A DNA stretch of 64,000 nucleotides, from positions 1-64,000 of the forward strand of contig CAWFGE010000010.1 of NCBI GenBank assembly GCA_963815195.1, given 5' to 3'. Each line of letters starts with the position of its first letter. Within the stretch, counting starts at the first letter, position 1. The position numbers and the translations under genes were made by a program. This stretch comes from an uncultured Planctomycetaceae bacterium (lineage in GTDB: Bacteria > Planctomycetota > Planctomycetia > Planctomycetales > Planctomycetaceae). Shown piece after piece: positions 17,089-35,095 of the stretch. The notes beneath the pieces are model-generated. The model was given only the letters and a program-made list of their open reading frames with translations, made no database searches and was not told the DNA's origin.

Positions 17089-17505
17089 GTCCCGTAGGGT
17101 TAAAAAATTGAAAGACCCATAAGTTGGCCGAACTTCATTGCCTTGCGCAGATGATTCGGTGCTCTCGCAATCGCTTTTTCCTGTCACAGCGAAAATTTTT
17201 TTAATTCGGCCGATTTTTTTGGGTGGCGCTGGCAACTTGTTGCCAGTGTTTTGGGAAGTCGGAAATTTCGATAAGCATCTGAGCCGCTGGTCGCCAGATT
17301 CGAGAAAATCGAATTCAGGGGCTGGCTGCCGAGGACGTTATTCTCGACAGACTTCGCTCGAAGAGATCAAAACGAATGACGAAGTCAGATTTAACAAACA
17401 AATTCGACGATTTTAAAAGGAGTATTTTCGTAAGCGTCCGACGTAACCATTCTTGACGGGTGGTTTACGCTGTGGGGATTTCTGAACTTCTCACAGCGGA
17501 GGCGT

Positions 17506-17874
17506 ATGATGGCTCATCAGCAGCGGCAGACGGAAGCGGTGTGGCGGGAGCGGTTGGGGCGGTTTCACGACAGCGGTTTGACGGCGAAAGCCTTTTGTGA
17601 ACGCGAGGGGGTTTCCTACTCGAACTTTCATGCCTGGAAGCGGCGGTTGGGATCGGGGAGAACGCAGTCCCCGTCTCGGGGTTCGGCGAATCGCTTGGAA
17701 AAAGAACCGTTGTTTGTGCCGGTGAGTGTGACGCCGAAAGCGGCTGCGGCCGAGGTGCGGATTGTGTTGCCGGGCGGGGCCGTGGTGCATGTGCCTTTGG
17801 AGGCGGACGAGCGGGTGCTGGCCTCGGTGATCGAAGCCGCGGCCCGGACCGGCCGGGAGGATTCGGCATGCTGA
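17506..17874 (+). CDS. tnpA: IS66 accessory protein TnpA (outer copy)
   Basis: WRERL...SGLTAKAFCEREGVSYSNFHAWKRRL...FVPV. Confidence 0.9.
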   Translation: MMAHQQRQTEAVWRERLGRFHDSGLTAKAFCEREGVSYSNFHAWKRRLGSGRTQSPSRGSANRLEKEPLFVPVSVTPKAAAAEVRIVLPGGAVVHVPLEADERVLASVIEAAARTGREDSAC

Positions 17875-18064
17875 ACCTCTCGCCTTTGGTCCGCGTGTTT
17901 TTGTGCACAAAGCCCACTGATCTTCGTAAAGGATTTGATGGTCTTTCGGGGTTGGTCGAAACCGGGTTCGAGGCCGATGTCTTGAGCGGTAAGCGTCCGA
18001 CGTAACCATTCTTGACGGGTGGTTTACGCTGTGGGGATTTCTGAACTTCTCACAGCGGAGGCGT

Positions 18065-18433
18065 ATGATGGCTCATCAGCAGCGGCAGACGGAAGCGGTG
18101 TGGCGGGAGCGGTTGGGGCGGTTTCACGACAGCGGTTTGACGGCGAAAGCCTTTTGTGAACGCGAGGGGGTTTCCTACTCGAACTTTCATGCCTGGAAGC
18201 GGCGGTTGGGATCGGGGAGAACGCAGTCCCCGTCTCGGGGTTCGGCGAATCGCTTGGAAAAAGAACCGTTGTTTGTGCCGGTGAGTGTGACGCCGAAAGC
18301 GGCTGCGGCCGAGGTGCGGATTGTGTTGCCGGGCGGGGCCGTGGTGCATGTGCCTTTGGAGGCGGACGAGCGGGTGCTGGCCTCGGTGATCGAAGCCGCG
18401 GCCCGGACCGGCCGGGAGGATTCGGCATGCTGA
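18065..18433 (+). CDS. tnpA: IS66 TnpA (inner copy)
   Basis: Same translation as 17506-17874. Confidence 0.9.
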   Translation: MMAHQQRQTEAVWRERLGRFHDSGLTAKAFCEREGVSYSNFHAWKRRLGSGRTQSPSRGSANRLEKEPLFVPVSVTPKAAAAEVRIVLPGGAVVHVPLEADERVLASVIEAAARTGREDSAC

Positions 18434-18786
18434 ACCTCTCGCCTTTGGTCCGCGTGTTTTTGTGCACAAAGCCCACTGATCTTCGTAAAGGATTTGATGG
18501 TCTTTCGGGGTTGGTCGAAACCGGGTTCGAGGCCGATGTCTTGAGCGGGCACTGGTTCGTATTTCTCAACCGCCGCCGCGACCGCGTGAAGATCCTGGCG
18601 TGGGACCATGACGGTCTGTCAATTTTTTACAAGCGCTTGGAGCGAGGGACTTATCAAGTGCCGCGCGAAGGGGAAGACCACGTGGAGTTGGACGCGGCCG
18701 AGCTTTCGATGCTGCTTTCGGGGATTGACATGACGAGTGCCCGCCGTCGCAAACGCTATCAGAAAAGCGAATCCCGCGAGCGATAA
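18427..18786 (+). CDS. tnpB: IS66 TnpB (inner copy)
   Basis: PTDLRKGFDGL...FVFLNRRRDRVKILAWDHDG...KRLERG. Confidence 0.95.
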   Translation: MLNLSPLVRVFLCTKPTDLRKGFDGLSGLVETGFEADVLSGHWFVFLNRRRDRVKILAWDHDGLSIFYKRLERGTYQVPREGEDHVELDAAELSMLLSGIDMTSARRRKRYQKSESRER

Positions 18787-18840
18787 ACCCGCTCAACATA
18801 TTTTCAAAAATCTTTTTTGTTTTGGGGAATAAACGCGAAG

Positions 18841-18879
18841 GGTGAGGGATCCTGTCGGAGGATTCCCTCACCTTTTTTT
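18841..18879 (+). terminator. Intrinsic terminator-like hairpin between tnpB and tnpC (second copy at 20914-20952)
   Basis: GGTGAGGGATCCT-GTCGG-AGGATTCCCTCACC followed by T7. Confidence 0.55.
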
Positions 18880-18893
18880 GCTTGTCGTGCTGG

Positions 18894-20587
18894 ATGACTT
18901 CGGACTCCTCACTTCCAGATGACTTGGCTGCTTGCCACGAACTGATTTGGCGGCAGCAAGTGGCGCTCACGCAAAAGCAGCATGCTTTGCAAGAGAAGCA
19001 GCATGCTTTGGAAGAGCAACGGCGCGTACTGGACGAAGTCGATGCGAACTATCACGAACTGCTTGAGGAACATGATCTCTTAAAGGCGGAGTTCGAGCAG
19101 TTTCGCCGCTGGGCTTTTGGGCGAAGGACGGAGCGCAACCGCGAAGCCGACGGCCAACGGCATCTGTTTGAACTGGAGCCGAGCGCCTCGCCCGTTCTCG
19201 ACGAAGAGGGCGTTTCCGAGGAAGAGCCGCCGGTTTCGCCCCGGCGAAAGAAACGCCGCTCGCAAAAAGACAAGCTTGAGCATTTGCCGCAGCGGCGGAT
19301 TGAACTCGACGTTCCCGAGGAAGACAAGCACTGCGAAACCTGCGGCGGCGAGAAGACGAAGATCGGCGAAGACGAACGCTCGGTGCTGCAGTATCGCCCG
19401 GCCGTCTTGGAAGTCGAAGTCTATGTGCTCCCCAAGTACGCTTGTCCGTGTTGTCAGGAGGGCGTGGTCAGCCCGCCTCCGCCGGAGCGAATCCTGCCGC
19501 GTTCGATCGCCGGGCCGGGGTTAATCAGCGAAATCCTTGTCAGCAAGTTCGGCGATCATCTGCCGCTTTATCGCCTGGAAGATCGTTTCACACGGCTGGG
19601 GCTTTATCTCTCGCGGAGCACGCTCTGCGATTGGACGCAAGCGGCGGCGGATTTACTCAAGCCGCTTTATGAGCGGATGCTCGCGCTCGTATTGAAATCC
19701 GATGTGATCTGGACCGATGACACGCCGGTGCGAATGCTCGATCCGAAGGCGGAGGGCGGCAGTCGGCTGTCACGGTTTTGGACTTACATCGGCGATGATC
19801 TCTATCCCTACTCGGTGTATGACTTCACCAAAAGCCGCAAGCGCGACGGCCCGGCCAAGTTCCTGGCGAACTATCAAGGCGCAATGCACGCGGATGCTTA
19901 CGGCGGCTATGACGGGATCGTGATGGGATCCAATGGGGCGATCGTGCGCATCGCCTGCGGGGCGCACATCCGCCGCAAGTTTGAGCAGGCGAAATCCAAT
20001 GCGCCGCGCGAGAGTGCGCAGATGCTGGAATGGTTTCGGCAACTGTATGACATCGAGGACCGCGCCCGCGAGGAGCCCGCGGAGATCCGTCACGCCCTGC
20101 GTCAGAAAGACGCCTTGCCAATCTTGGCCAAGATGAAAGCCTCCTTGGATGAACTGGAGGTGCGCGGCTGCCCAAATCGAAGCTCGGCCAGGCGGTGACT
20201 TATGCGCGAAACCAATGGTCGGCGTTCTGCCTTTATGTGGACGATGGCCGGCGGACGATCGACAACAACGTCAGCGAACGCACCTTGCGGGCTCAAGCCA
20301 TTGGAAGAAAAAACTGGCTGTTCTTGGGCCACGAGTCGGCGGGCCCTCGGGCCGCGGTGTTGTTTACGATCCTCGCGGGAGCCAAACGGCACCACCTGGA
20401 ACCCTGGGCCTATATGACCGATGTCTTGGTCAAGCTCGCCGCCGAGACCAGCGACCTGGACGCCTTGCTTCCCGACCGCTGGGCCGCCGCCCATCCCGAA
20501 CACGTGCTGAATTACCGCCTGGAAGAATCCCGCCAAAAACGCGCCCGCCAAAAAGCCAAACGAAGCCGCCGCCGCAAAGGCGAATAA
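18894..20587 (+). CDS. tnpC: IS66 transposase TnpC (inner copy; 1-nt frameshift near 20166)
   Basis: Coiled coil, C..CG Zn finger, KFGDHLPLYR, DDTP, ADAYGGY, IDNNVSER, GRKNWLF. Confidence 0.92.
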
Positions 20588-20966
20588 CCCCCTGTCAAAA
20601 CCGGGTGCTTACCTTGAGCGGGCACTGGTTCGTATTTCTCAACCGCCGCCGCGACCGCGTGAAGATCCTGGCGTGGGACCATGACGGTCTGTCAATTTTT
20701 TACAAGCGCTTGGAGCGAGGGACTTATCAAGTGCCGCGCGAAGGGGAAGACCACGTGGAGTTGGACGCGGCCGAGCTTTCGATGCTGCTTTCGGGGATTG
20801 ACATGACGAGCGCCCGCCGTCGCAAACGCTATCAGAAAAGCGAATCCCGCGAGCGATAAACCCGCTCAACATATTTTCAAAAATCTTTTTTGTTTTGGGG
20901 AATAAACGCGAAGGGTGAGGGATCCTGTCGGAGGATTCCCTCACCTTTTTTTGCTTGTCGTGCTGG

Positions 20967-22661
20967 ATGACTTCGGACTCCTCACTTCCAGATGACTTGG
21001 CTGCTTGCCACGAACTGATTTGGCGGCAGCAAGTGGTGCTCACGCAAAAGCAGCATGCTTTGCAAGAGAAGCAGCATGCTTTGGAAGAGCAACGGCGCGT
21101 ACTGGACGAAGTCGATGCGAACTATCACGAACTGCTTGAGGAACATGATCTCTTAAAGGCGGAGTTCGAGCAGTTTCGCCGCTGGGCTTTTGGGCGAAGG
21201 ACGGAGCGCAACCGCGAAGCCGACGGCCAACGGCATCTGTTTGAACTGGAGCCGAGCGCCTCGCCCGTTCTCGACGAAGAGGGCGTTTCCGAGGAAGAGC
21301 CGCCGGTTTCGCCCCGGCGAAAGAAACGCCGCTCGCAAAAAGACAAGCTTGAGCATTTGCCGCAGCGGCGGATTGAACTCGACGTTCCCGAGGAAGACAA
21401 GCACTGCGAAACCTGCGGCGGCGAGAAGACGAAGATCGGCGAAGACGAACGCTCGGTGCTGCAGTATCGCCCGGCCGTCTTGGAAGTCGAAGTCTATGTG
21501 CTCCCCAAGTACGCTTGTCCGTGTTGTCAGGAGGGCGTGGTCAGCCCGCCTCCGCCGGAGCGAATCCTGCCGCGTTCGATCGCCGGGCCGGGGTTAATCA
21601 GCGAAATCCTTGTCAGCAAGTTCGGCGATCATCTGCCGCTTTATCGCCTGGAAGATCGTTTCACACGGCTGGGGCTTTATCTCTCGCGGAGCACGCTCTG
21701 CGATTGGACGCAAGCGGCGGCGGATTTACTCAAGCCGCTTTATGAGCGGATGCTCGCGCTCGTATTGAAATCCGATGTGATCTGGACCGATGACACGCCG
21801 GTGCGAATGCTCGATCCGAAGGCGGAGGGCGGCAGTCGGCTGTCACGGTTTTGGACTTACATCGGCGATGATCTCTATCCCTACTCGGTGTATGACTTCA
21901 CCAAAAGCCGCAAGCGCGACGGCCCGGCCAAGTTCCTGGCGAACTATCGAGTGCAATGCACGCGGATGCTTACGGCGGCTATGACGGGATCGTGATGGGA
22001 TCCAATGGGGCGATCGTGCGCATCGCCTGCGGGTGCGCACATCCGCCGCAAGTTTGAGCAGGCGAAATCCAATGCGCCGCGCGAGAGTGCGCAGATGCTG
22101 GAATGGTTTCGGCAACTGTATGACATCGAGGACCGCGCCCGCGAGGAGCCCGCGGAGATCCGTCACGCCCTGCGTCAGAAAGACGCCTTGCCAATCTTGG
22201 CCAAGATGAAAGCCTCCTTGGATGAACTGGAGGTGCGCGTGCTGCCCAAATCGAAGCTCGGCCAGGCGGTGACTTATGCGCGAAACCAATGGTCGGCGTT
22301 CTGCCTTTATGTGGACGATGGCCGGCGGACGATCGACAACAACGTCAGCGAACGCACCTTGCGGGCTCAAGCCATTGGAAGAAAAAACTGGCTGTTCTTG
22401 GGCCACGAGTCGGCGGGCCCTCGGGCCGCGGTGTTGTTTACGATCCTCGCGGGAGCCAAACGGCACCACCTGGAACCCTGGGCCTATATGACCGATGTCT
22501 TGGTCAAGCTCGCCGCCGAGACCAGCGACCTGGACGCCTTGCTTCCCGACCGCTGGGCCGCCGCCCATCCCGAACACGTGCTGAATTACCGCCTGGAAGA
22601 ATCCCGCCAAAAACGCGCCCGCCAAAAAGCCAAACGAAGCCGCCGCCGCAAAGGCGAATAA
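20967..22661 (+). CDS. tnpC: IS66 transposase TnpC (outer copy; indels near 21950 and 22034)
   Basis: Near-identical to the inner copy. Confidence 0.92.
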
Positions 22662-22686
22662 CCCCCTGTCAAAACCGGGCGCTTAC

Positions 22687-23317: not shown

Positions 23318-26300
23318 TCAGAATCGCCGCTTCGATCTGCCCGGATTCGGCATCGCCCGCGGCGGCAATGCGGACGTGGGCCAGAGTTTTACATGGCCGT
23401 CGGATCCGGCGGAAGCCACGACCGACCCGTCCGCAGAAACCGCCACGTCAAAAATGTATCGCGATTCTTCCGTCTCCGATTGCGTGTGGCCTTCATAATT
23501 CGCCACGCGTTGGCGGGACTCGACGTTCCACAATTCCACCTTTCCATCAAAGCGGCCAATGACGATCGTGCGGGCGTCGGGCAGAAATGCGGCACACGAG
23601 GTTTCGCTGCCGATGGGAAGGCGGCCGGAGAGCTTTTTCTTGGGCACGTCGTAAACGAGCAATTCGGTTTGTGAGCCGCCCGCAATCAAAGTGCGGCCGT
23701 CGGGACTGAAGCGGACTTGCCGCATCTTTCGCGTGGGGCCGGGCAGGCTGGCGACTTCCTCGCCGGTCTTCACGTTCCAGAGCTTGACGTTGCCGGGCTT
23801 TTGATACTGTTTGAGATTTCCCGTCGCCGTCGCCAAGAGTTCCCCGTCCGGCGAAAAGGCCAAGCCGCCGATGACCAGTTCTTGCCGGGGCAGTTCGCGA
23901 ATCTTCTCCCGGGTCTCGGCGTTCCAAATCGAAACGCTCCCGTCCCAGGCCCCGGAGGCCATCTGTTTTCCATCGGGCGAAAATGCGACGGACATGTTTT
24001 TCTCATGCCCGGTTTCCACGCCGGCCAACAGGTCGAGCGACTTAGCATCCCACAAGAAGATTTCATTCTTGAAGCCTCCCGTCAGGAGAAGTTTTCCGTC
24101 TGGGCTGTAAACGCCCTCCGTGATGCCTTGCTTTTGGAATACGGTTTTCACAACCCGGCCCGTCTCCAAATCCCACAACCGAATCGCGCGGTCTTGATTG
24201 CCGGTTATCATGTGCTTGCCGTCGGGGGAGAACGCGACGAACCGAACTTCCGAATTCTTGGAGTCTTCGCCGGGGTTGAGATCCGCCAAGGGAGGAATGG
24301 GCGGTTCGAGACCTTGCCAGAGTTTTAAGGTCTTGTCGTAACTGCCCGTGACGATGGCCGTGGCGTTGGGAGCATACGACAGCGAGGTGATGACATCCTG
24401 ATGCCCTTTCAGCGTCTGCAGAGGCGAGCCGGTTTCGCCGTTCCAGATGCGGAGCGTGTTATCAAACCCGGCACTCGCCAAGGTGCGGCCGTGGCGAGAA
24501 AACGCCAGACACCACACCATGCCCGTGTGCCCTTTGAGTTCCTGCAAGCGTTCGCCCGTCGCCGGGTTCCAGAAGCGGATGGTTTTGTCTTCGCTCGCGC
24601 TCGCAACTCGGCCGCCGTCGGGCGAGAACGTGACCGCGCGCACGGCCGCGGTGTGGCCTTTGAGTTCGCGGAGCGATTTTTGCGTTTTCAGATCCCAAAC
24701 TCTTACCGTGCGGTCGCTGCCGCCGGAGACGAGATGCTTCCCATCCGGCGAAAACGCCAAGGACCGCACGGCCGCGGTGTGGCCTTCGAGAACGCCTTTC
24801 GGATTCCCGTCGGCGACGTTCCACAACCGGATCGATTTGTCATATCCGCCGCTCGCCAGGGTCTTGCCGTCCGGCGAGAAGGCCACCGAAAACACCCAAT
24901 TGCTGTGCCCTTTCAAGGTCCGTACGAGTTTGGCCGTTTCCACATTCCAAAGCTTGATCGTCTGATCGTAACTGCCCGTGGCCAAAGTTCGGCTGTCCGG
25001 CGAAAACGCCACCGTGGAGACCACGTCCTCATGATCTTTCAGCGCCGTCAAAAACTTTCCGGTCGCGGCCTCGCGGAGACGGACTGACGTGTCCTCGTGC
25101 GTGGTCACCACATAGCGGCCATTGGGCGAATGCGCGATGGCGAGCACGGCTTCCGGGGTGTCTTCCAAAGCTTTGTATGGCAGAAGGATTCCCAAAAGCA
25201 GGCCGGTGTCGGGGTTCCAAAGGCGGATCGTAGCATCCTCGGCCCCGGTCGCCAGGGTTTTTCCGTCCGGCGTAAACTCCGCGGAGAGGGCTTGCCCTTG
25301 ATGGCCGACCAGTTGCCGCAAGACTCTGTGGTCTTTCATCACATAGATCGTGCCGTCGCCGCACGCCGCCGCCATCCGGCCGTCGGGAGCATAATTGATC
25401 TCCCGCACCGGGCGGCCGGGCAGGTTCAGGACGGCGATTTGTTTTCCGCTGCGCGGTTCCCAAAAGGCGACGGTGGAACCAAACTCGCCGGTGGCGATTT
25501 CTTTCCCATCCGGTGAAAACTCGATCGCCGCAAACATCGGGCCGCCGGAATCGAACTTCGCGATCTGTTGGCCGCTTTCCACCTCGAAGACCAGCCCGCG
25601 GCCGAAGCGCGGGTTCTGAAGACTTCCGCCCGCCGCGACGAGCAATCGGCTGTCCGGCGAGAAGGCGATCTTCACGATTTTTTGAAAGGCGGACAATTCC
25701 CCCGTGAAGGTCCGCTCTTCGTCCCATCGGCCCACGGTCCACAAGAACAGTTTTGCCCCTTCCGTTCCCGCCGCGAGGTATTTTCCGTCGGGTGAAAAAT
25801 CCAAGCGGCCGACCCGCGAGCCGGTGCTTTTCTTCGCGACGACGTTCCAGGTTTTCGTTTCCCGAATCTCCAATTGGGTCTCCCAATAGGTGGCCGCGAG
25901 ATATTGGCCGTCCGGGCTGAACGTCAGCGATGAAACGCCTTGGGGCACCGGGTATTTCTTCAAGACCTTCCGGCCGGCGAAGTCATAGACCACAATCTGC
26001 CCCGCCGTGTTCCAGCGGCCGTATCCCGCCGCCAAGAGTTTGCCATCGGGAGAGAATGCCAGATCGCGGACTTCCAATTCCGCAATCGGATAGCCTCTGG
26101 GCTGTTTCTCAAACTCAACCGGTTCCTGGCCGAAGAAGGAATCCGGCTTCGCTTGTGTCGTCGCTTCGGCCTCGCCGGGCTTCGCAGCCTCGGCGACTGT
26201 GTTCGCATCTGTCCTTTGAGCGACCAACCGCGGCCAGGCGGAGAGACAAATCACCGCGGCGGCCAACAAGGCGCTTTTCCACAAACCCAATCGGGCTGAC

Positions 26301-26407
26301 ATTCCGTCTTGCAAAATCATGGTCAATCTCCGCTTCAGGAATTCCAAGTTTCTCATGCCAATTGCAGCCGACGGCAATGCCTGCGGAATGGCCGACCAGA
26401 AGTCCAT
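23318..26407 (-). CDS. Large WD40-repeat protein retaining only the tail of an M56/BlaR1-type peptidase domain (5'-truncated)
   Basis: ~20 GH...VAFSPDG..LASG..D..I.LW repeats; N-terminal DF...FLKRRLTMIL plus TM helix typical of the end of M56 domains; no HExxH present. Confidence 0.8.
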   Translation of the reverse strand: MDFWSAIPQALPSAAIGMRNLEFLKRRLTMILQDGMSARLGLWKSALLAAAVICLSAWPRLVAQRTDANTVAEAAKPGEAEATTQAKPDSFFGQEPVEFEKQPRGYPIAELEVRDLAFSPDGKLLAAGYGRWNTAGQIVVYDFAGRKVLKKYPVPQGVSSLTFSPDGQYLAATYWETQLEIRETKTWNVVAKKSTGSRVGRLDFSPDGKYLAAGTEGAKLFLWTVGRWDEERTFTGELSAFQKIVKIAFSPDSRLLVAAGGSLQNPRFGRGLVFEVESGQQIAKFDSGGPMFAAIEFSPDGKEIATGEFGSTVAFWEPRSGKQIAVLNLPGRPVREINYAPDGRMAAACGDGTIYVMKDHRVLRQLVGHQGQALSAEFTPDGKTLATGAEDATIRLWNPDTGLLLGILLPYKALEDTPEAVLAIAHSPNGRYVVTTHEDTSVRLREAATGKFLTALKDHEDVVSTVAFSPDSRTLATGSYDQTIKLWNVETAKLVRTLKGHSNWVFSVAFSPDGKTLASGGYDKSIRLWNVADGNPKGVLEGHTAAVRSLAFSPDGKHLVSGGSDRTVRVWDLKTQKSLRELKGHTAAVRAVTFSPDGGRVASASEDKTIRFWNPATGERLQELKGHTGMVWCLAFSRHGRTLASAGFDNTLRIWNGETGSPLQTLKGHQDVITSLSYAPNATAIVTGSYDKTLKLWQGLEPPIPPLADLNPGEDSKNSEVRFVAFSPDGKHMITGNQDRAIRLWDLETGRVVKTVFQKQGITEGVYSPDGKLLLTGGFKNEIFLWDAKSLDLLAGVETGHEKNMSVAFSPDGKQMASGAWDGSVSIWNAETREKIRELPRQELVIGGLAFSPDGELLATATGNLKQYQKPGNVKLWNVKTGEEVASLPGPTRKMRQVRFSPDGRTLIAGGSQTELLVYDVPKKKLSGRLPIGSETSCAAFLPDARTIVIGRFDGKVELWNVESRQRVANYEGHTQSETEESRYIFDVAVSADGSVVASAGSDGHVKLWPTSALPPRAMPNPGRSKRRF

Positions 26408-27493: not shown

Positions 27494-28417
27494 ATGACCA
27501 CATTGGTTGAAAAACTCAAAGCGTTGGCCCCCGCGCAGTTTGAGAATGTCGTTTACGACCTCGTCACATCAGCCGGACTTCGGAATGCCGTGTGGCGGAC
27601 ACCTGGCTCAGACGGTGGTCGGGATATCGAAGGAGAATTTGTTACAACAGACTTCAGCGGGTTCAGCATAACTGCAAAGTGGTACGTGGAATGTAAACGA
27701 TACGAGAGTTCCGTTGATTGGCCTACCGTTTGGCAGAAAATTGCCTACGCCGATAGTCACAACGCAGACTATTTGTTGGTTGTAACTACGTCCGCATTAT
27801 CTCCGCAGTGCAAAACTGAGGTTTCGACATGGAATAAGAACCATCGCCGACCCTCAGTGCGATGTTGGGAAGGCAGTATTTTGGATCAGATCCTGACACA
27901 TTATCCTGGAATCCTCGTGAAGTATGGTCTCGCCCAAGACACCAAGCTTGTCCCGGCGTCGTTTATGAAGCTCTCCCAAGAAACGTCGAAGATAGTTCAG
28001 GCAGCGTATGGGGCATCGGAGATGCAGGAATGGGATAACCCGGCACTGGAAGCTGCGTCGGCTATGTCTGAACTTCTCACGGTGCGGATTAGAGACGCGG
28101 AAACGGAAGGCCGCATTGCCAAAACTCCTTTCATACTCAATATGGATCGCTTTCACTGGCTGTCGGTCAATGGTGATCCCGCGTTGCTCGGCGGCTTCGA
28201 CCGACACGGGCTGCGCACCGTGTTGGCACTTCTAAGACACGTGACCGGTTGCACTGTCGCGACCGCAGAATTGACACAAGGAGTCGTGCGTGTGACGCTT
28301 CCAACGGACTGCCTTCCGAACTCGACCGCTATGACTCTTTTGATAGAAGTATCTCAGTGGGGAGATATGGAGGTACGATTGGAAGAGCAGAACTTCTTCG
28401 TTTCCGGGAGACCATAA
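27494..28417 (+). CDS. Mrr-like PD-(D/E)xK restriction endonuclease with uncharacterised C-terminal domain
   Basis: QFENVVYDLV...TPGSDGGRDI...WYVECKRY...LLVVTTS, the Mrr_cat pattern. Confidence 0.85.
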   Translation: MTTLVEKLKALAPAQFENVVYDLVTSAGLRNAVWRTPGSDGGRDIEGEFVTTDFSGFSITAKWYVECKRYESSVDWPTVWQKIAYADSHNADYLLVVTTSALSPQCKTEVSTWNKNHRRPSVRCWEGSILDQILTHYPGILVKYGLAQDTKLVPASFMKLSQETSKIVQAAYGASEMQEWDNPALEAASAMSELLTVRIRDAETEGRIAKTPFILNMDRFHWLSVNGDPALLGGFDRHGLRTVLALLRHVTGCTVATAELTQGVVRVTLPTDCLPNSTAMTLLIEVSQWGDMEVRLEEQNFFVSGRP

Positions 28418-28419
28418 AA

Positions 28420-29149
28420 ATGTCCAACAGCGATCCGCTGCCAGCCGACTTAACGCTGCTCGCCAACTTCATTCACCAAATCATCAACCCTCTAAACGGA
28501 GTTATGGGCACTCTTGACAATCTGATCGATGGAACAGTACCAGTGGAAAAAAGAGACCAGCGGCTAAAAGCGACTCGCGCAACTTGAGGTCGCCACGATG
28601 ATCGTCCGGAATCTTGCGTACTTCACGGAACAGAGTTTGCAGCCCGGCACTCTTCCACAACGGGATTTATCCAAGACGTGCGTCATTCCGCAACTCGTGA
28701 TCGAAGCCGCGCAGTTTTTCCAAGAATCGGGATTACAAAAAGAGATTAGGATTGAGTTGACGGACTCTCATACGCAGTATGCTATACCCGGTTCGCCAGA
28801 GTTGATCCGACAAGTCTTTATGAACATCTTCGACAACGCCGTGAAGTACAGCGATGCCGGCAGCAATGTGAACGTCACACCCTGGATACAGAAAAAGACG
28901 AACGATTTAATCGTGGAAGTCTGCAACGCTGGGCCTGGATTCTCCCACAAGGAGTCAAAAACGATTTTCAACCCCGGTACACGAGGCACCGAGGCCGTGA
29001 ATTTGATCAAGTCCGGTACAGGCCTCGGACTTCACATCTGCAAGATGATTATCGAGGACTATCACCACGGCAAGATTGAAGCAGAATACTCGGAGTCCAC
29101 CCGGATCGTCACTATCCGGCTTCGATTTCCCAAATGGAGGACTACATGA
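28420..29149 (+). CDS. Sensor-less histidine kinase (HisKA + HATPase_c; frameshift near 28580)
   Basis: H-box FIHQIINPL, N-box VFMNIFDNAVKYS, G1 CNAGPGF, G2 GTGLGLHICK; ATG 2 nt after the nuclease stop. Confidence 0.85.
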
Positions 29150-29598
29150 TGAACCCGTCCCGGAAGGAAGACACTATTCTGCTCGCGGATGACGAACCGT
29201 ACAACTTGCAGTTCATCATCGATTTTCTTGAATCCCTAAATTACCACACCACAGTTGCTGATAACGTTGATAGCGCTATGCAACGACTCAATGAGCATAT
29301 GTTCCGAGCAGTCATCGTTGATTTAAGCATTCCGCTGTTGCCACCGCAGTCGCTCTTGAGGGAGCGCGATCTGATATTTCAGAAGTACCCTGGCCTTCTC
29401 GTCGCAGATTACGCCCGGAACCACGGTCATACTGGGAGACAGGTGATCGTCTACTCCGTACATGACGACGTGAACGTCGGCCAACTGGCCGCAAAACTTG
29501 GGTTCACGTACCTGCTGAAGGGCCGAGCACGCCTTTTGAAGGAAGAGATAAAAGACGTACTTTCTTTCGATCCGCTTTTAAAGCCCACGAAATCTTGA
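29146..29598 (+). CDS. Stand-alone response regulator receiver protein
   Basis: ILLADDE, VIVDLSIP (phospho-Asp), VIVYS, YLLKG; ATGA overlap with the kinase. Confidence 0.88.
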   Translation: MMNPSRKEDTILLADDEPYNLQFIIDFLESLNYHTTVADNVDSAMQRLNEHMFRAVIVDLSIPLLPPQSLLRERDLIFQKYPGLLVADYARNHGHTGRQVIVYSVHDDVNVGQLAAKLGFTYLLKGRARLLKEEIKDVLSFDPLLKPTKS

Positions 29599-30058
29599 AA
29601 CTCGCGTTGCATGCATCGGTCACATCGACCGACAGCGTTTGGAGAAACTCGAAACCGAGCGAAGTTGGACAACCTTCTGCCGTTTGCGACTCACGCGAAC
29701 TGCGGGAGCTGGCGGACACCGCTGGGGAAAAGACGAATCGCCGCCGGCCGTGTTTGCGTCGATCGCGAAATACCCGACCGGACTCGGAGAAAAGCGGAGA
29801 TTTCGGGGTTTCCCCGAAGGCGGTTTGTCCCGATCAAACTGCAGGACTCGGAACGCCAGCATTCCAGCATTTCATCCGCGAGTCCGTTGTCGTTCAAACG
29901 TTCAAGCCAACTCGTACGGCTTTTCTCGATACAGCGTTTTTTCTCCTGCGACCGTGTTCTTCGTGAATGGCGTTGACTATGTCGCGTCAGTCAAAATCGC
30001 TACTATTCGACTTCAGCCAATTCCCAAAAACACGTTTCACTGTTACGAAGGAGCAATC

Positions 30059-30412
30059 ATGGCCAAGAAGAAATCGCAAGGCCCCAGCAAAAGCCAAACT
30101 GTCCGCGACTACCTCACCGAGAATCCGAGCGCCACCGCATCCGTGGTGGTGCCCGAAATGGCCGAGCGGGGCATCAAGGTGAGCCCCGCACTGGTCAGCC
30201 AGGTCAAAAAGCGGATGAAGGAGTCCGGCCAATTGGATGGGCAAAAAGCGGCGACGAAGAAGTCGGGAAGCAAAAAGTCCAGCCCAAAGAAATCGGCACC
30301 AGCCAACGCGCTGACGGCGGAAAATTTGGTTGAAGCGAAGAAACTGGTAAATGAATTGGGCGGAATCGACCAGGCCCGCCAGGCGCTCAAGTTCCTGGAA
30401 GAATTGGGATGA
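30059..30412 (+). CDS. Lys-rich putative DNA-binding / nucleoid-associated protein, planctomycete-type
   Basis: RBS AAGGAG; N-terminal SKSQTVRDYL...VSPALVSQVK helical domain, K/S/A-rich linker, C-terminal LVEAKKLVNELGGIDQARQAL. Confidence 0.75.
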   Translation: MAKKKSQGPSKSQTVRDYLTENPSATASVVVPEMAERGIKVSPALVSQVKKRMKESGQLDGQKAATKKSGSKKSSPKKSAPANALTAENLVEAKKLVNELGGIDQARQALKFLEELG

Positions 30413-30432
30413 GCCCAAGCTGGCCCACAAAA

Positions 30433-30452
30433 ATGCCCCCTTGCGGGGGCAT
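30433..30452. terminator. Hairpin terminator between convergent genes
   Basis: ATGCCCCC-TTGC-GGGGGCAT with an A-run on the left (U-tract on the minus strand). Confidence 0.7.
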
Positions 30453-30456
30453 GGCT

Positions 30457-30582
30457 TTAAGCGGCCTTTTGGATTTTCTGGAGCGCTTCGATCGCGGCTT
30501 TCGCTTTTTCGATGCTGCCCAGCTTCTCCACGAACTGTCGCATTTTCAGGACGGCGTGTTCTTTGGGTTTGCTGTCGGCCAC
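30457..30582 (-). CDS. 41-aa mini-protein resembling the C-terminal helix of the neighbouring Lys-rich protein
   Basis: GTG after AAAGGAAA; MADSKPKEHAVLKMRQFVEKLGSIEKAKAAIEALQKIQKAA*; below the ORF-track length cutoff. Confidence 0.7.
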   Translation of the reverse strand: MADSKPKEHAVLKMRQFVEKLGSIEKAKAAIEALQKIQKAA

Positions 30583-30719
30583 CAGATTTCCTTTCTGAGA
30601 ATCGCGGCTTCGGGAAATATCCCTTTTGATCGGCAAGTGCGATTGTGGAAGTTGAACGAAGTCGGGCGGAGAGAATTACGCCCCATCTGAATTGAGCCGG
30701 GGCTGGGCCGCCCGTGGAG

Positions 30720-30945
30720 CCTAGGGTTTGTCGCCCAGTTCCGCCTGGAGTTGGTTAGCCGGCCTTTGATTTCGGCGATGGTCTGCTGATGCTGCGGGTC
30801 ATCGTAGGCGTTTTGAGATTCGTGCGGATCACCGGCCAGATCGTAAAACTCCCACCGCCGCTCGGGCGGCTGCTTGCGGAGGCCGTCGTAATAGATCAGC
30901 TTGTGCTTGGCGGTGCGGATGCCGTAATGGGCGGGACGCTCCGGG
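30720..30945 (-). pseudogene. C-terminal remnant of a sulfatase
   Basis: PAHYGIRTAKHKLIYYDG...WEFYDLAGDPHESQNAY; boundaries approximate. Confidence 0.7.
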
Positions 30946-31434: not shown

Positions 31435-31628
31435 TCGCCTCTCGGTCCGACGGCGTTACCGCCAAGCCTCCTCGCAGCCGGCGGCGATTCTGACTAAATA
31501 GGGTCTCGCCAATCGCCCGCTCGCCGCCAAAAAGGTATCTCCGAGGGTATCTTTCGGCCAGGAAAACGAGCAAAGGGTTCTGCCGAATATCAGCGTAATC
31601 CTTTTGAGCATATTGGTTTGCGGAAAAG

Positions 31629-31702
31629 TGGTCCCTACAGGGCTCGAACCTGTGACCTCTTCCGTGTGAAGGAAGCGCGCTAGCCAACTGCGCCAAGGGA
31701 CC
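31629..31702 (-). tRNA. tRNA-Val (anticodon CAC), CCA tail not encoded
   Basis: GGTCCCT/AGGGACC acceptor stem, anticodon arm CTTCC-TTCACAC-GGAAG, T-loop GGTTCGAGCC. Confidence 0.97.
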
Positions 31703-34612: not shown

Positions 34613-35095
34613 TTACGCGGGGAACTGATTGGGGCTGAGCATCCATTCGAGGACCCCTTGGGCTTCGGCGACGGGGCCGTCGAAGCGGACACTGGCGATC
34701 GTGGCCGGTTGGAACCTGAGCCTTCCTCCCGCGACCAATGCGGCGGTGCACCAGCTCATGCGGGGTTCGTGGCCGACGACGGCGACTGTCTCCGCCTTCG
34801 TCGAGCGGAGTTCCTTGAGCAGTTCCTCGAGCGGCATTCCCGATCCGATCCAATGCCGGGCGTCTCCATCCGACAAATGCTGCCCGCTGGCCTCGGCAAA
34901 CAAAGCGGCCGTCTGCCGGGCGCGGACGAGCGGACTATAGAAAATGCGGTCCGGCACGATGCCCCGCTCCACGAGCCACATGGCCATCTTCGAAAACACC
35001 CGCCGGCCCCGATCGGTCAGCGGCCGCTCAAAGTCCCCGCCGGGCACGCTCCCCGGTTCGGCGGCGAAACTATGCCGGATCATCAAGACTTGCAT
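34613..35095 (-). CDS. sixA: Phosphohistidine phosphatase SixA family
   Basis: MIRH...ERPLTDRG...SPLVRARQTA...VVGHEP. Confidence 0.88.
   Translation of the reverse strand: MQVLMIRHSFAAEPGSVPGGDFERPLTDRGRRVFSKMAMWLVERGIVPDRIFYSPLVRARQTAALFAEASGQHLSDGDARHWIGSGMPLEELLKELRSTKAETVAVVGHEPRMSWCTAALVAGGRLRFQPATIASVRFDGPVAEAQGVLEWMLSPNQFPA

Follow-up and report, generated by a model that had tools for sequence, protein, structure and literature searches.

The stretch of DNA studied here (the window) comprises 64,000 nucleotides of contig CAWFGE010000010.1 (assembly GCA_963815195.1) from an uncultured Planctomycetaceae bacterium, and it carries on its forward strand, at 27494-29598, a cassette of three genes which is predicted to place a DNA-cutting enzyme under the control of a phosphorylatable receiver. 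Gene A (27494-28417, 307 amino acids) encodes an Mrr-type PD-(D/E)xK nuclease with a C-terminal module predicted to be a pseudo-histidine kinase. Gene B (28420-29149) encodes a sensorless HisKA-HATPase_c protein, recognised from Pfam and from alignment to its relatives, and gene C, assigned by Pfam Response_reg and its motifs, encodes a single-domain receiver which ends at 29598 and starts at 29146 or at a second possible ATG upstream, at 29134. A preliminary description made from the sequence alone had presented this trio as a candidate phosphorelay-controlled defence system, and its picture of the layout was borne out. Only 2 nt separate A from B, the stop codon of B overlaps the ATG of C as ATGA (29146-29149), and the guanine plus cytosine (GC) content of the cassette, 0.510, falls below the genome mean (0.598) to a level that only 0.6% of 4198 equal-sized tiles share. 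A tRNA-Val gene lies about 2 kb downstream on the reverse strand (31628-31702). No cognate DNA methyltransferase was recognised in the flanking open reading frames (ORFs), judged by eye and for some of them by a library scan, and a promoter and terminator scan stayed at chance level.

The point missing from that earlier account is that gene B is split in the window. Relative to three close relatives (L001, L047 and L048) it carries a 2-nt deletion at 28578/28579, leaving pieces of 55 and 189 amino acids (28420-28587 and 28580-29149). A frameshifted appearance was found in 19 of 86 paralogue loci of the same assembly, about 0.16 per kb with true pseudogenes included, and copies of an insertion sequence (IS66) in the window differ by single-base indels; because of these two observations the split is likely an assembly error and not a true lesion. 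No public contig spanning the break was found, and none of the three read runs covers position 28578.

The nuclease domain of A occupies residues 1 to about 140 (27494-27913) and contains E17, D40, D44 and the E66-x-K68 motif. Residues 9-113 match Pfam Mrr_cat (PF04471) with an E-value of 5e-14 and 53 bits against a cut-off of 21, and the full-length model of A is confident, with a predicted local distance difference test score (pLDDT) of 95.6. AspBHI was found as a structural match of this domain (E 7e-7), and alignment with the catalytic domains of AspBHI and MspJI gave a Z score of 14.0 and a root mean square deviation (rmsd) of 3.0 over 139 aligned residues. The PD-(D/E)xK residues are largely retained among the A members (D 64/64, K 64/64, E 60/64), so that A belongs to the Mrr_cat family both by its domain score and by its catalytic residues. 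NCBIfam matched 0 of the 64 A members, and PHROGs at 1e-25 gave no match for A or C.

The extra C-terminal region of about 160 amino acids that had been seen on the nuclease is present as residues 146-307 (27929-28414). Folded alone (pLDDT 92.7), it forms a helical hairpin, after which comes a small domain of alpha/beta type. Foldseek returned histidine kinases or phytochromes in 36 of 36 cases among the matches listed, the best with an E-value of 1.6e-3, and VIA-align placed HprS (Z 7.9, rmsd 3.0, 93 aligned), SrrB (7.9, 2.9, 96) and PrrB (7.8, 2.9, 100) on top, with DivL at Z 7.0. Modified-base reader domains of type IV enzymes are SRA or winged-helix folds, and the best fold matches of the tail are kinase cores rather than such readers. 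Histidine is not conserved in the tail, any one column holding it in at most 16 of 81 sequences. The tail is therefore predicted by modelling to be an old pseudo-kinase core, consisting of a hairpin similar to the dimerization and histidine phosphotransfer (DHp) domain and a shortened HATPase-like domain. Its profile matches 221 representatives, and 101 of the 150 listed have a long N-terminus. A recent duplication of gene B as the origin of the tail is unsupported, since HHalign of the two gave a probability of 0.1%. ABC-3C CTD10 was considered as a relative on a single ESM Atlas match (0.78), which falls below the reliable range, and was dropped.

Gene C contains D19, D20 and E21, the phospho-site D63 and K129, and the D-D-E, phospho-Asp and Lys positions are kept in 64 of 64 family members; by its motifs the receiver is phosphorylatable. 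As had been noticed earlier, an output domain is lacking and the phospho-site is followed by an insert; this insert, of about 20 amino acids after D63, recurs across the receiver alignment. For the docking analysis a complex of two A and two C chains was modelled with the sequences of an intact relative (L001) and paired 64-row alignments. The A:C complex score was 0.79, against 0.00 for the best of three controls; the mark used is passed by 116 of 157 solved complexes and by 2 of 215 mismatched pairs, counts which apply only roughly here. The runs share at least 85% of contacts, with partner pLDDT of at least 86. In the model the receiver contributes residues 10-21 and 118-126, that is the alpha-1 helix and the beta5-alpha5 loop, which is the surface by which receivers bind real kinases, and the tail contributes hairpin residues 163-175 and 181-194 as well as portions of the small domain. 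In their register the contacts (tail to receiver 167-14, 170-17 and 174-21) parallel those of HK853 residues 268/271/275 on RR468, and K166 of the tail would therefore sit near the H+4 position, beside the phospho-Asp. K166 is kept in 57 of 64 members, and W/F27, K129, G130 and R131 of the receiver are conserved at the interface. The preliminary description had left the C-terminal domain as either the kinase input or the target of the receiver; the role as target has gained predicted support from the fold searches and the complex model. From such models it appears likely that the receiver gates the nuclease through the pseudo-kinase tail.

Several relatives (L018:9634-10233, L022:9636-10244, L023:9676-10263, L033:1910-2539, P0257 and P0258) have receivers with long Lys/Arg-rich, probably disordered C-terminal tails, which could bind nucleic acid. 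The only apparent nuclease-receiver fusion found (P0259) begins with the nuclease and seems to have arisen by an internal deletion, so it was not accepted as a true fusion. A homologue search of the genome contigs with the single C sequence confirmed 0 of 179 pattern matches; the alignment search worked.

Gene B has only 18 residues before His19 and no sensor or transmembrane segment, in agreement with the earlier reading of it as sensorless. Pfam HisKA covers residues 12-46 below its cut-off, HATPase_c is found in the second piece, the predicted structure is a standard DHp domain with a catalytic and ATP-binding (CA) domain, and ESM Atlas placed the protein in generic kinase clusters. Most relatives are about 234-266 amino acids long, a few longer open frames reach 308, and the gene is intact and sensorless in nearly all of them. 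The H-box reads H-Q-x-x-N-P, with H, Q, N and P each in 64 of 64 sequences, and the G1 position holds G, S, N or C, with Asp in 0 of 64. The canonical autokinase signature, an acidic residue after the His and a G1-box Asp, is thus lacking in all 64, and the HisKA phosphatase signature, Thr or Asn at H+4, is present as Asn in all 64. In CrdS the E372Q change abolished autokinase activity and kept phosphatase activity, for which the H+4 Asn was required (PMC3510030). BumS is described as a phosphatase-only sensor whose system takes acetyl or carbamoyl phosphate as donor (PMC12469816). By analogy, H-Q-x-x-N together with the absent G1 Asp may be read as the signature of kinase-dead, phosphatase-competent HisKA proteins. 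Because of this signature and the two precedents, a function of B mainly as a phosphatase brake is favoured over that of a working kinase, although within our overall model the two stand about evenly. The tacit view of the preliminary description, in which B is the activating kinase, has become doubtful on account of the same family-wide signature.

At one metagenomic locus (L085:1024-2428) B is missing, A is cut to 277 amino acids, the receiver follows A directly and gajB is adjacent. The loss of B together with a damaged A would fit B as a brake, as a single case. This locus and a broken one (L039) are read as decayed or misassembled.

The arrangement was found to be strongly conserved. Among 2041 candidates 294 homologues of A were obtained at E of 0.001 or below, and the profile search found 41 genome loci, 80 of 88 metagenome loci and 7 viral loci. 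The A-B-C order, the recurrence of which the preliminary description had set as a test, holds in 37 of the 38 loci from genomes and in 52 of the 53 from metagenomes (L039 and L085 being the misses), counted at loci with at least 2150 nt from the start of A and with duplicates kept in. It is also present in all five viral loci with a full-length A, the remaining two being short weak matches. No fourth conserved gene or cognate methylase was found in the clustered flanking ORFs of 121 loci and the window. The three gene trees hold supported splits in common (21/32, 21/32 and 19/30) against at most 1 in 100 shuffles. GC content of the cassette is below that of the flanks in 32 of 32 genome loci, with a median difference of -15 points, and each of 24 genomes has one cassette match. 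No copy was found in 400 further genomes from the phylum of the window or in 30 relatives. Titles of the genome records point to Planctomycetota, alpha-, beta-, gamma- and delta-type proteobacteria and Verrucomicrobiota, and one of 72,556 plasmid records carries the cassette, between a LysR gene and IS5. That the trio is a functional unit is almost certain, and the cassette is self-contained, horizontally spread and sporadic. In-frame fusions of A and B occur in two single metagenomic records (L066, 595 amino acids; P0260, 552 amino acids). An intact GC-poor copy adjoins thiC in a metagenome-assembled genome of Akkermansia muciniphila (L017:7995-10057), and two further loci (L034 and L095) also adjoin thiC-like genes, a possible recurrent insertion site.

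The genomic surroundings provide indirect evidence for a role in defence. In three viral (prophage) loci no more than about 2 kb separates the cassette from endolysin genes, and in one it lies about 2.4 kb from gajAB (Gabija); locus L124 looks phage-like by eye only. Neighbours were scanned with PADLOC at 1e-20 in up to three ORFs per side, with our own heuristic ORF calls. Specific defence neighbours were found at 8 of 39 genome loci (ThsB, PDC-S01, ZorD-like, PDC-S05, PDC-S31, PDC-S33, type I restriction-modification (RM) and LmuA) and at 7 of 35 metagenome loci (DRT, ZorB, GajB, PD-T7-5, SIR2, PDC-S06 and a type II methyltransferase), after removal of generic matches to RtcR (L023), mad3 (L031, which is UvrA; L041; L094) and reverse transcriptase (L041, a group II intron). 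Four of 23 matched control regions from the same contigs (136 ORFs) had matches, all judged generic and removed: mad3 three times, a partial mad2, and DpdF (L145), read as RecQ-like. The proposed co-location with defence islands is therefore supported modestly in the curated comparison (6/23 against 0/23, p 0.022) and not in the raw one (8/23 against 4/23, p 0.31). On the basis of the prophage cargo slots and this modest enrichment, an anti-phage role of the cassette is probable.

No matching system was found in the libraries searched, in line with the earlier remark that the trio was not recognised as a named one. PADLOC candidates PDC-M58, PDC-M43 and PDC-M60 were rejected, each gene matching a different one weakly and in part (M58A 3e-11, M43B 3e-12, M60B 6e-6), and the main text of Payne et al. 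has no passage on these three. No account of the trio was found in the literature searched; the DefensePredictor tables may hold a relative, and Burroughs and Aravind 2020, to which Kaur et al. 2021 refer on receiver domains of conflict systems, could contain a description.

The closest likeness is with Detocs, which consists of DtcA, a long sensor kinase with its phospho-His at 645 and tetratricopeptide repeats, DtcB, a phosphate buffer, and DtcC, a receiver fused to an effector (Rousset et al., bioRxiv 10.1101/2023.01.24.525353). Both are three-gene systems that combine the core of a histidine kinase with a stand-alone receiver and an effector that kills the cell (an endonuclease in some Detocs), and both use phosphotransfer chemistry in a defence setting; C resembles DtcB by its receiver motifs only, a likeness of architecture. 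DtcA has a large N-terminal sensing region whereas B has 18 residues before its His, and DtcC is a receiver-effector fusion whereas A has no receiver and a predicted pseudo-kinase tail. The single receiver is here the predicted switch, in contrast to the buffer DtcB, and B looks phosphatase-type. Among the PADLOC matches of B and C (64 members each) there was no Dtc profile, in a release which may hold no Detocs models. The cassette works like Detocs, yet it stands outside Detocs by architecture because it has neither the sensor region nor the receiver-effector fusion.

Other precedents cover single parts of the arrangement. DivL, a pseudokinase of Caulobacter, binds DivK~P (PMC4211667), and here also a dead histidine-kinase core is predicted to be reused to bind a single-domain receiver. 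DivL can still be recognised as a kinase, with Tyr in place of the His, and acts in cell-cycle signalling, whereas the present tail shows no detectable profile similarity to its cognate kinase, carries a catalytic-type domain of reduced length and forms part of a nuclease. Ambrosia (bioRxiv 10.1101/2025.09.30.679545) has five genes, including an XRE regulator, a methylase, a REC-wHTH transcription factor (winged helix-turn-helix, wHTH) and an HNH nuclease, under a control proposed as transcriptional; like the cassette, it brings two-component genes together with a nuclease in a single anti-phage cluster, but XRE, methylase and wHTH are not conserved here, the receiver has no helix-turn-helix and the nuclease is of PD-(D/E)xK type. 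With the Mrr and type IV enzymes AspBHI and MspJI the cassette shares the Mrr_cat domain and fold and the lack of a cognate methylase, but the match covers the catalytic domain alone, no modified-base reader is seen, the predicted pseudo-kinase tail standing in its place, and two signalling genes are obligately linked. From BumSR (PMC12469816) comes the logic suggested for B and C, a histidine-kinase-type protein acting as phosphatase on a receiver loaded by phosphodonors; BumS however senses metabolites, BumR is a transcription factor, and a nuclease is absent.

The model which is somewhat favoured as a whole is that of an abortive anti-phage system in which phosphorylation of the receiver switches the nuclease in trans and B is the brake. 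In this model B would act mainly as a phosphatase and keep C unphosphorylated, while small phosphodonors or cross-talk would load phosphate onto the receiver. Infection would disable or overwhelm B and the phospho-receiver would build up; the pseudo-kinase tail would read it, with the conserved Lys166 at about H+4, and the phospho-receiver would license the nuclease dimer, so that DNA is cut and the infected cell dies. A methylase would be unneeded because the nuclease is normally off. The earlier proposal that phosphorylation gates DNA cleavage is thus retained in the predicted docking of the receiver on the tail, and is weakened where it took B as the activating kinase.

A number of observations weigh against this model. 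The fold scores of the tail are middling, with no Foldseek E-value at or below 0.001 and all Z scores under 8, a range in which VIA-align warns that a match can be a common arrangement, and HHalign found no profile similarity between the tail and B. Interface columns of the tail are barely more conserved than its other columns (0.35 against 0.32), and the A:C docking pass may stem from memorised solved kinase-receiver pairs, the controls having included no unrelated receiver. Effector swapping was unseen, the same nuclease domain being present in 100 of the 101 long tail-bearing proteins (among 150 listed of 221). In gene B the His, the N-box (N130, N134, K137 and Y138), R183 and the G2 glycines are invariant in 64 of 64 members, which fits a working kinase too. 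On the defence side, no match was found among 50,697 GenBank phage records, most neighbours (129 ORFs) are housekeeping or unnamed genes, and the enrichment reaches p=0.022 only after the generic matches were removed by hand (raw p=0.31). One removed control match is a full-length DpdF, and counting it gives 6 against 1.

The same wiring could also be run with the opposite logic, B being a working kinase which is either constitutive or triggered when a phage protein binds it directly. The phospho-receiver would then restrain the nuclease as an antitoxin for as long as ATP and protein synthesis last; alternatively, phosphorylation set off by phage would activate the nuclease as in Detocs. The invariant residues of B just listed and its standard DHp-CA structure speak for this explanation, and natural HQ-type kinases may exist. 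It is nevertheless unlikely, as B has no sensor domain for signal input, the G1 Asp is absent in 64 of 64, and Q at H+1 abolishes the autokinase activity of CrdS (PMC3510030). Pairing of A and B through their hairpins as a heterodimer is less likely again; B would then control the nuclease directly, or the nuclease domain would sense foreign DNA and signal into B, and the receiver would be a mere phosphate buffer. RetS-GacS is a heterodimer precedent for hairpin pairing. Such a pairing would account for the A-B fusions, which as single metagenomic records may reflect lost stop codons between adjacent genes, and the buffer has its precedent in DtcB (bioRxiv 10.1101/2023.01.24.525353). Against it, the predicted docking partner of the receiver is A, and the conserved catalytic residues of the nuclease suggest an effector rather than a pure sensor.

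Phosphate gating of the same kind could serve a selfish addiction module that acts by post-segregational killing, or a switch for suicide under stress, to which the lone insertions amid housekeeping genes and beside IS elements, and the presence of defence neighbours at only about a fifth of loci, would be suited. The cargo slots in prophage lysis regions, the Gabija, Zorya, Thoeris, DRT and type I RM neighbours and the single occurrence among 72,556 plasmid records make this explanation improbable. Finally, a chance juxtaposition or decayed remnant without joint function would be suggested by the frameshifted gene B of the window, but the near-universal linkage, the congruent trees, the intact B of nearly all relatives and the indel-rich assembly leave it hardly credible, and for the family it is largely refuted.

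The cassette lies in a stretch with further mobile features. It ends 13 nt before a 1.3-kb repeated module (29612-30926), which is 95.7% identical to a stretch of contig C11, where the copy is also beside a tRNA-Val; similar stretches occur on four other contigs. The module encodes a Lys-rich protein of 117 amino acids (30059-30412) without a Pfam match at 1e-8, possibly an island-borne DNA-binding protein. The tRNA-Val(CAC) gene is a probable integration site, as an exact copy of 39 nt of its 3' half (31629-31667) opens contig C5, where integrase-, excisionase- and helicase-like ORFs (by eye) come next. Because of this exact recurrence beside integrase-like ORFs, the data suggest that the first 31.6 kb of the window form an island at tRNA-Val, with the 39-nt repeat as att site. 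Tandem IS66 elements occupy 17430-22686; their two transposase copies are 99.6% identical, and each is interrupted by single-base indels at sites of its own. The contig has a third copy near 445-447 kb, and a 560-nt inverted duplication spans 17430-18548. Directly upstream of the cassette, on the reverse strand (23318-26407), is a gene for a multi-propeller WD40 protein of 1029 amino acids with a DNA paralogue 74% identical on contig C13; it is not conserved beside the cassette at other loci. On the core side of the tRNA a reverse-strand gene of the histidine-phosphatase superfamily (His_Phos_1, SixA-like, 34613-35095) shows no sign of linkage to the cassette.

This study has outlined an arrangement which, if confirmed, would add to the ways in which two-component proteins serve bacterial immunity. 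The defensive two-component systems known to date act through a receiver-effector fusion (Detocs) or by a proposed transcriptional route (Ambrosia), and a nuclease gated in trans via a repurposed kinase fold would represent a third type of wiring. The principle of a pseudokinase as reader would, if the model is true, be carried from Caulobacter development into immunity. The question is also raised how a system without a sensor domain senses infection. As a tentative and rather doubtful answer, the trio may be an immune guard of a new class, in which a phosphatase-only histidine kinase homologue erases the receiver phosphate and a fossil-kinase nuclease reads the phospho-receiver; infection would then be detected without a sensor domain, through a disturbed phosphodonor pool or a phage attack on two-component signalling. 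The cassette of about 2.1 kb has intact copies in cultured bacteria, which makes it easily tested, and it could serve as a phosphorylation-controlled kill switch.

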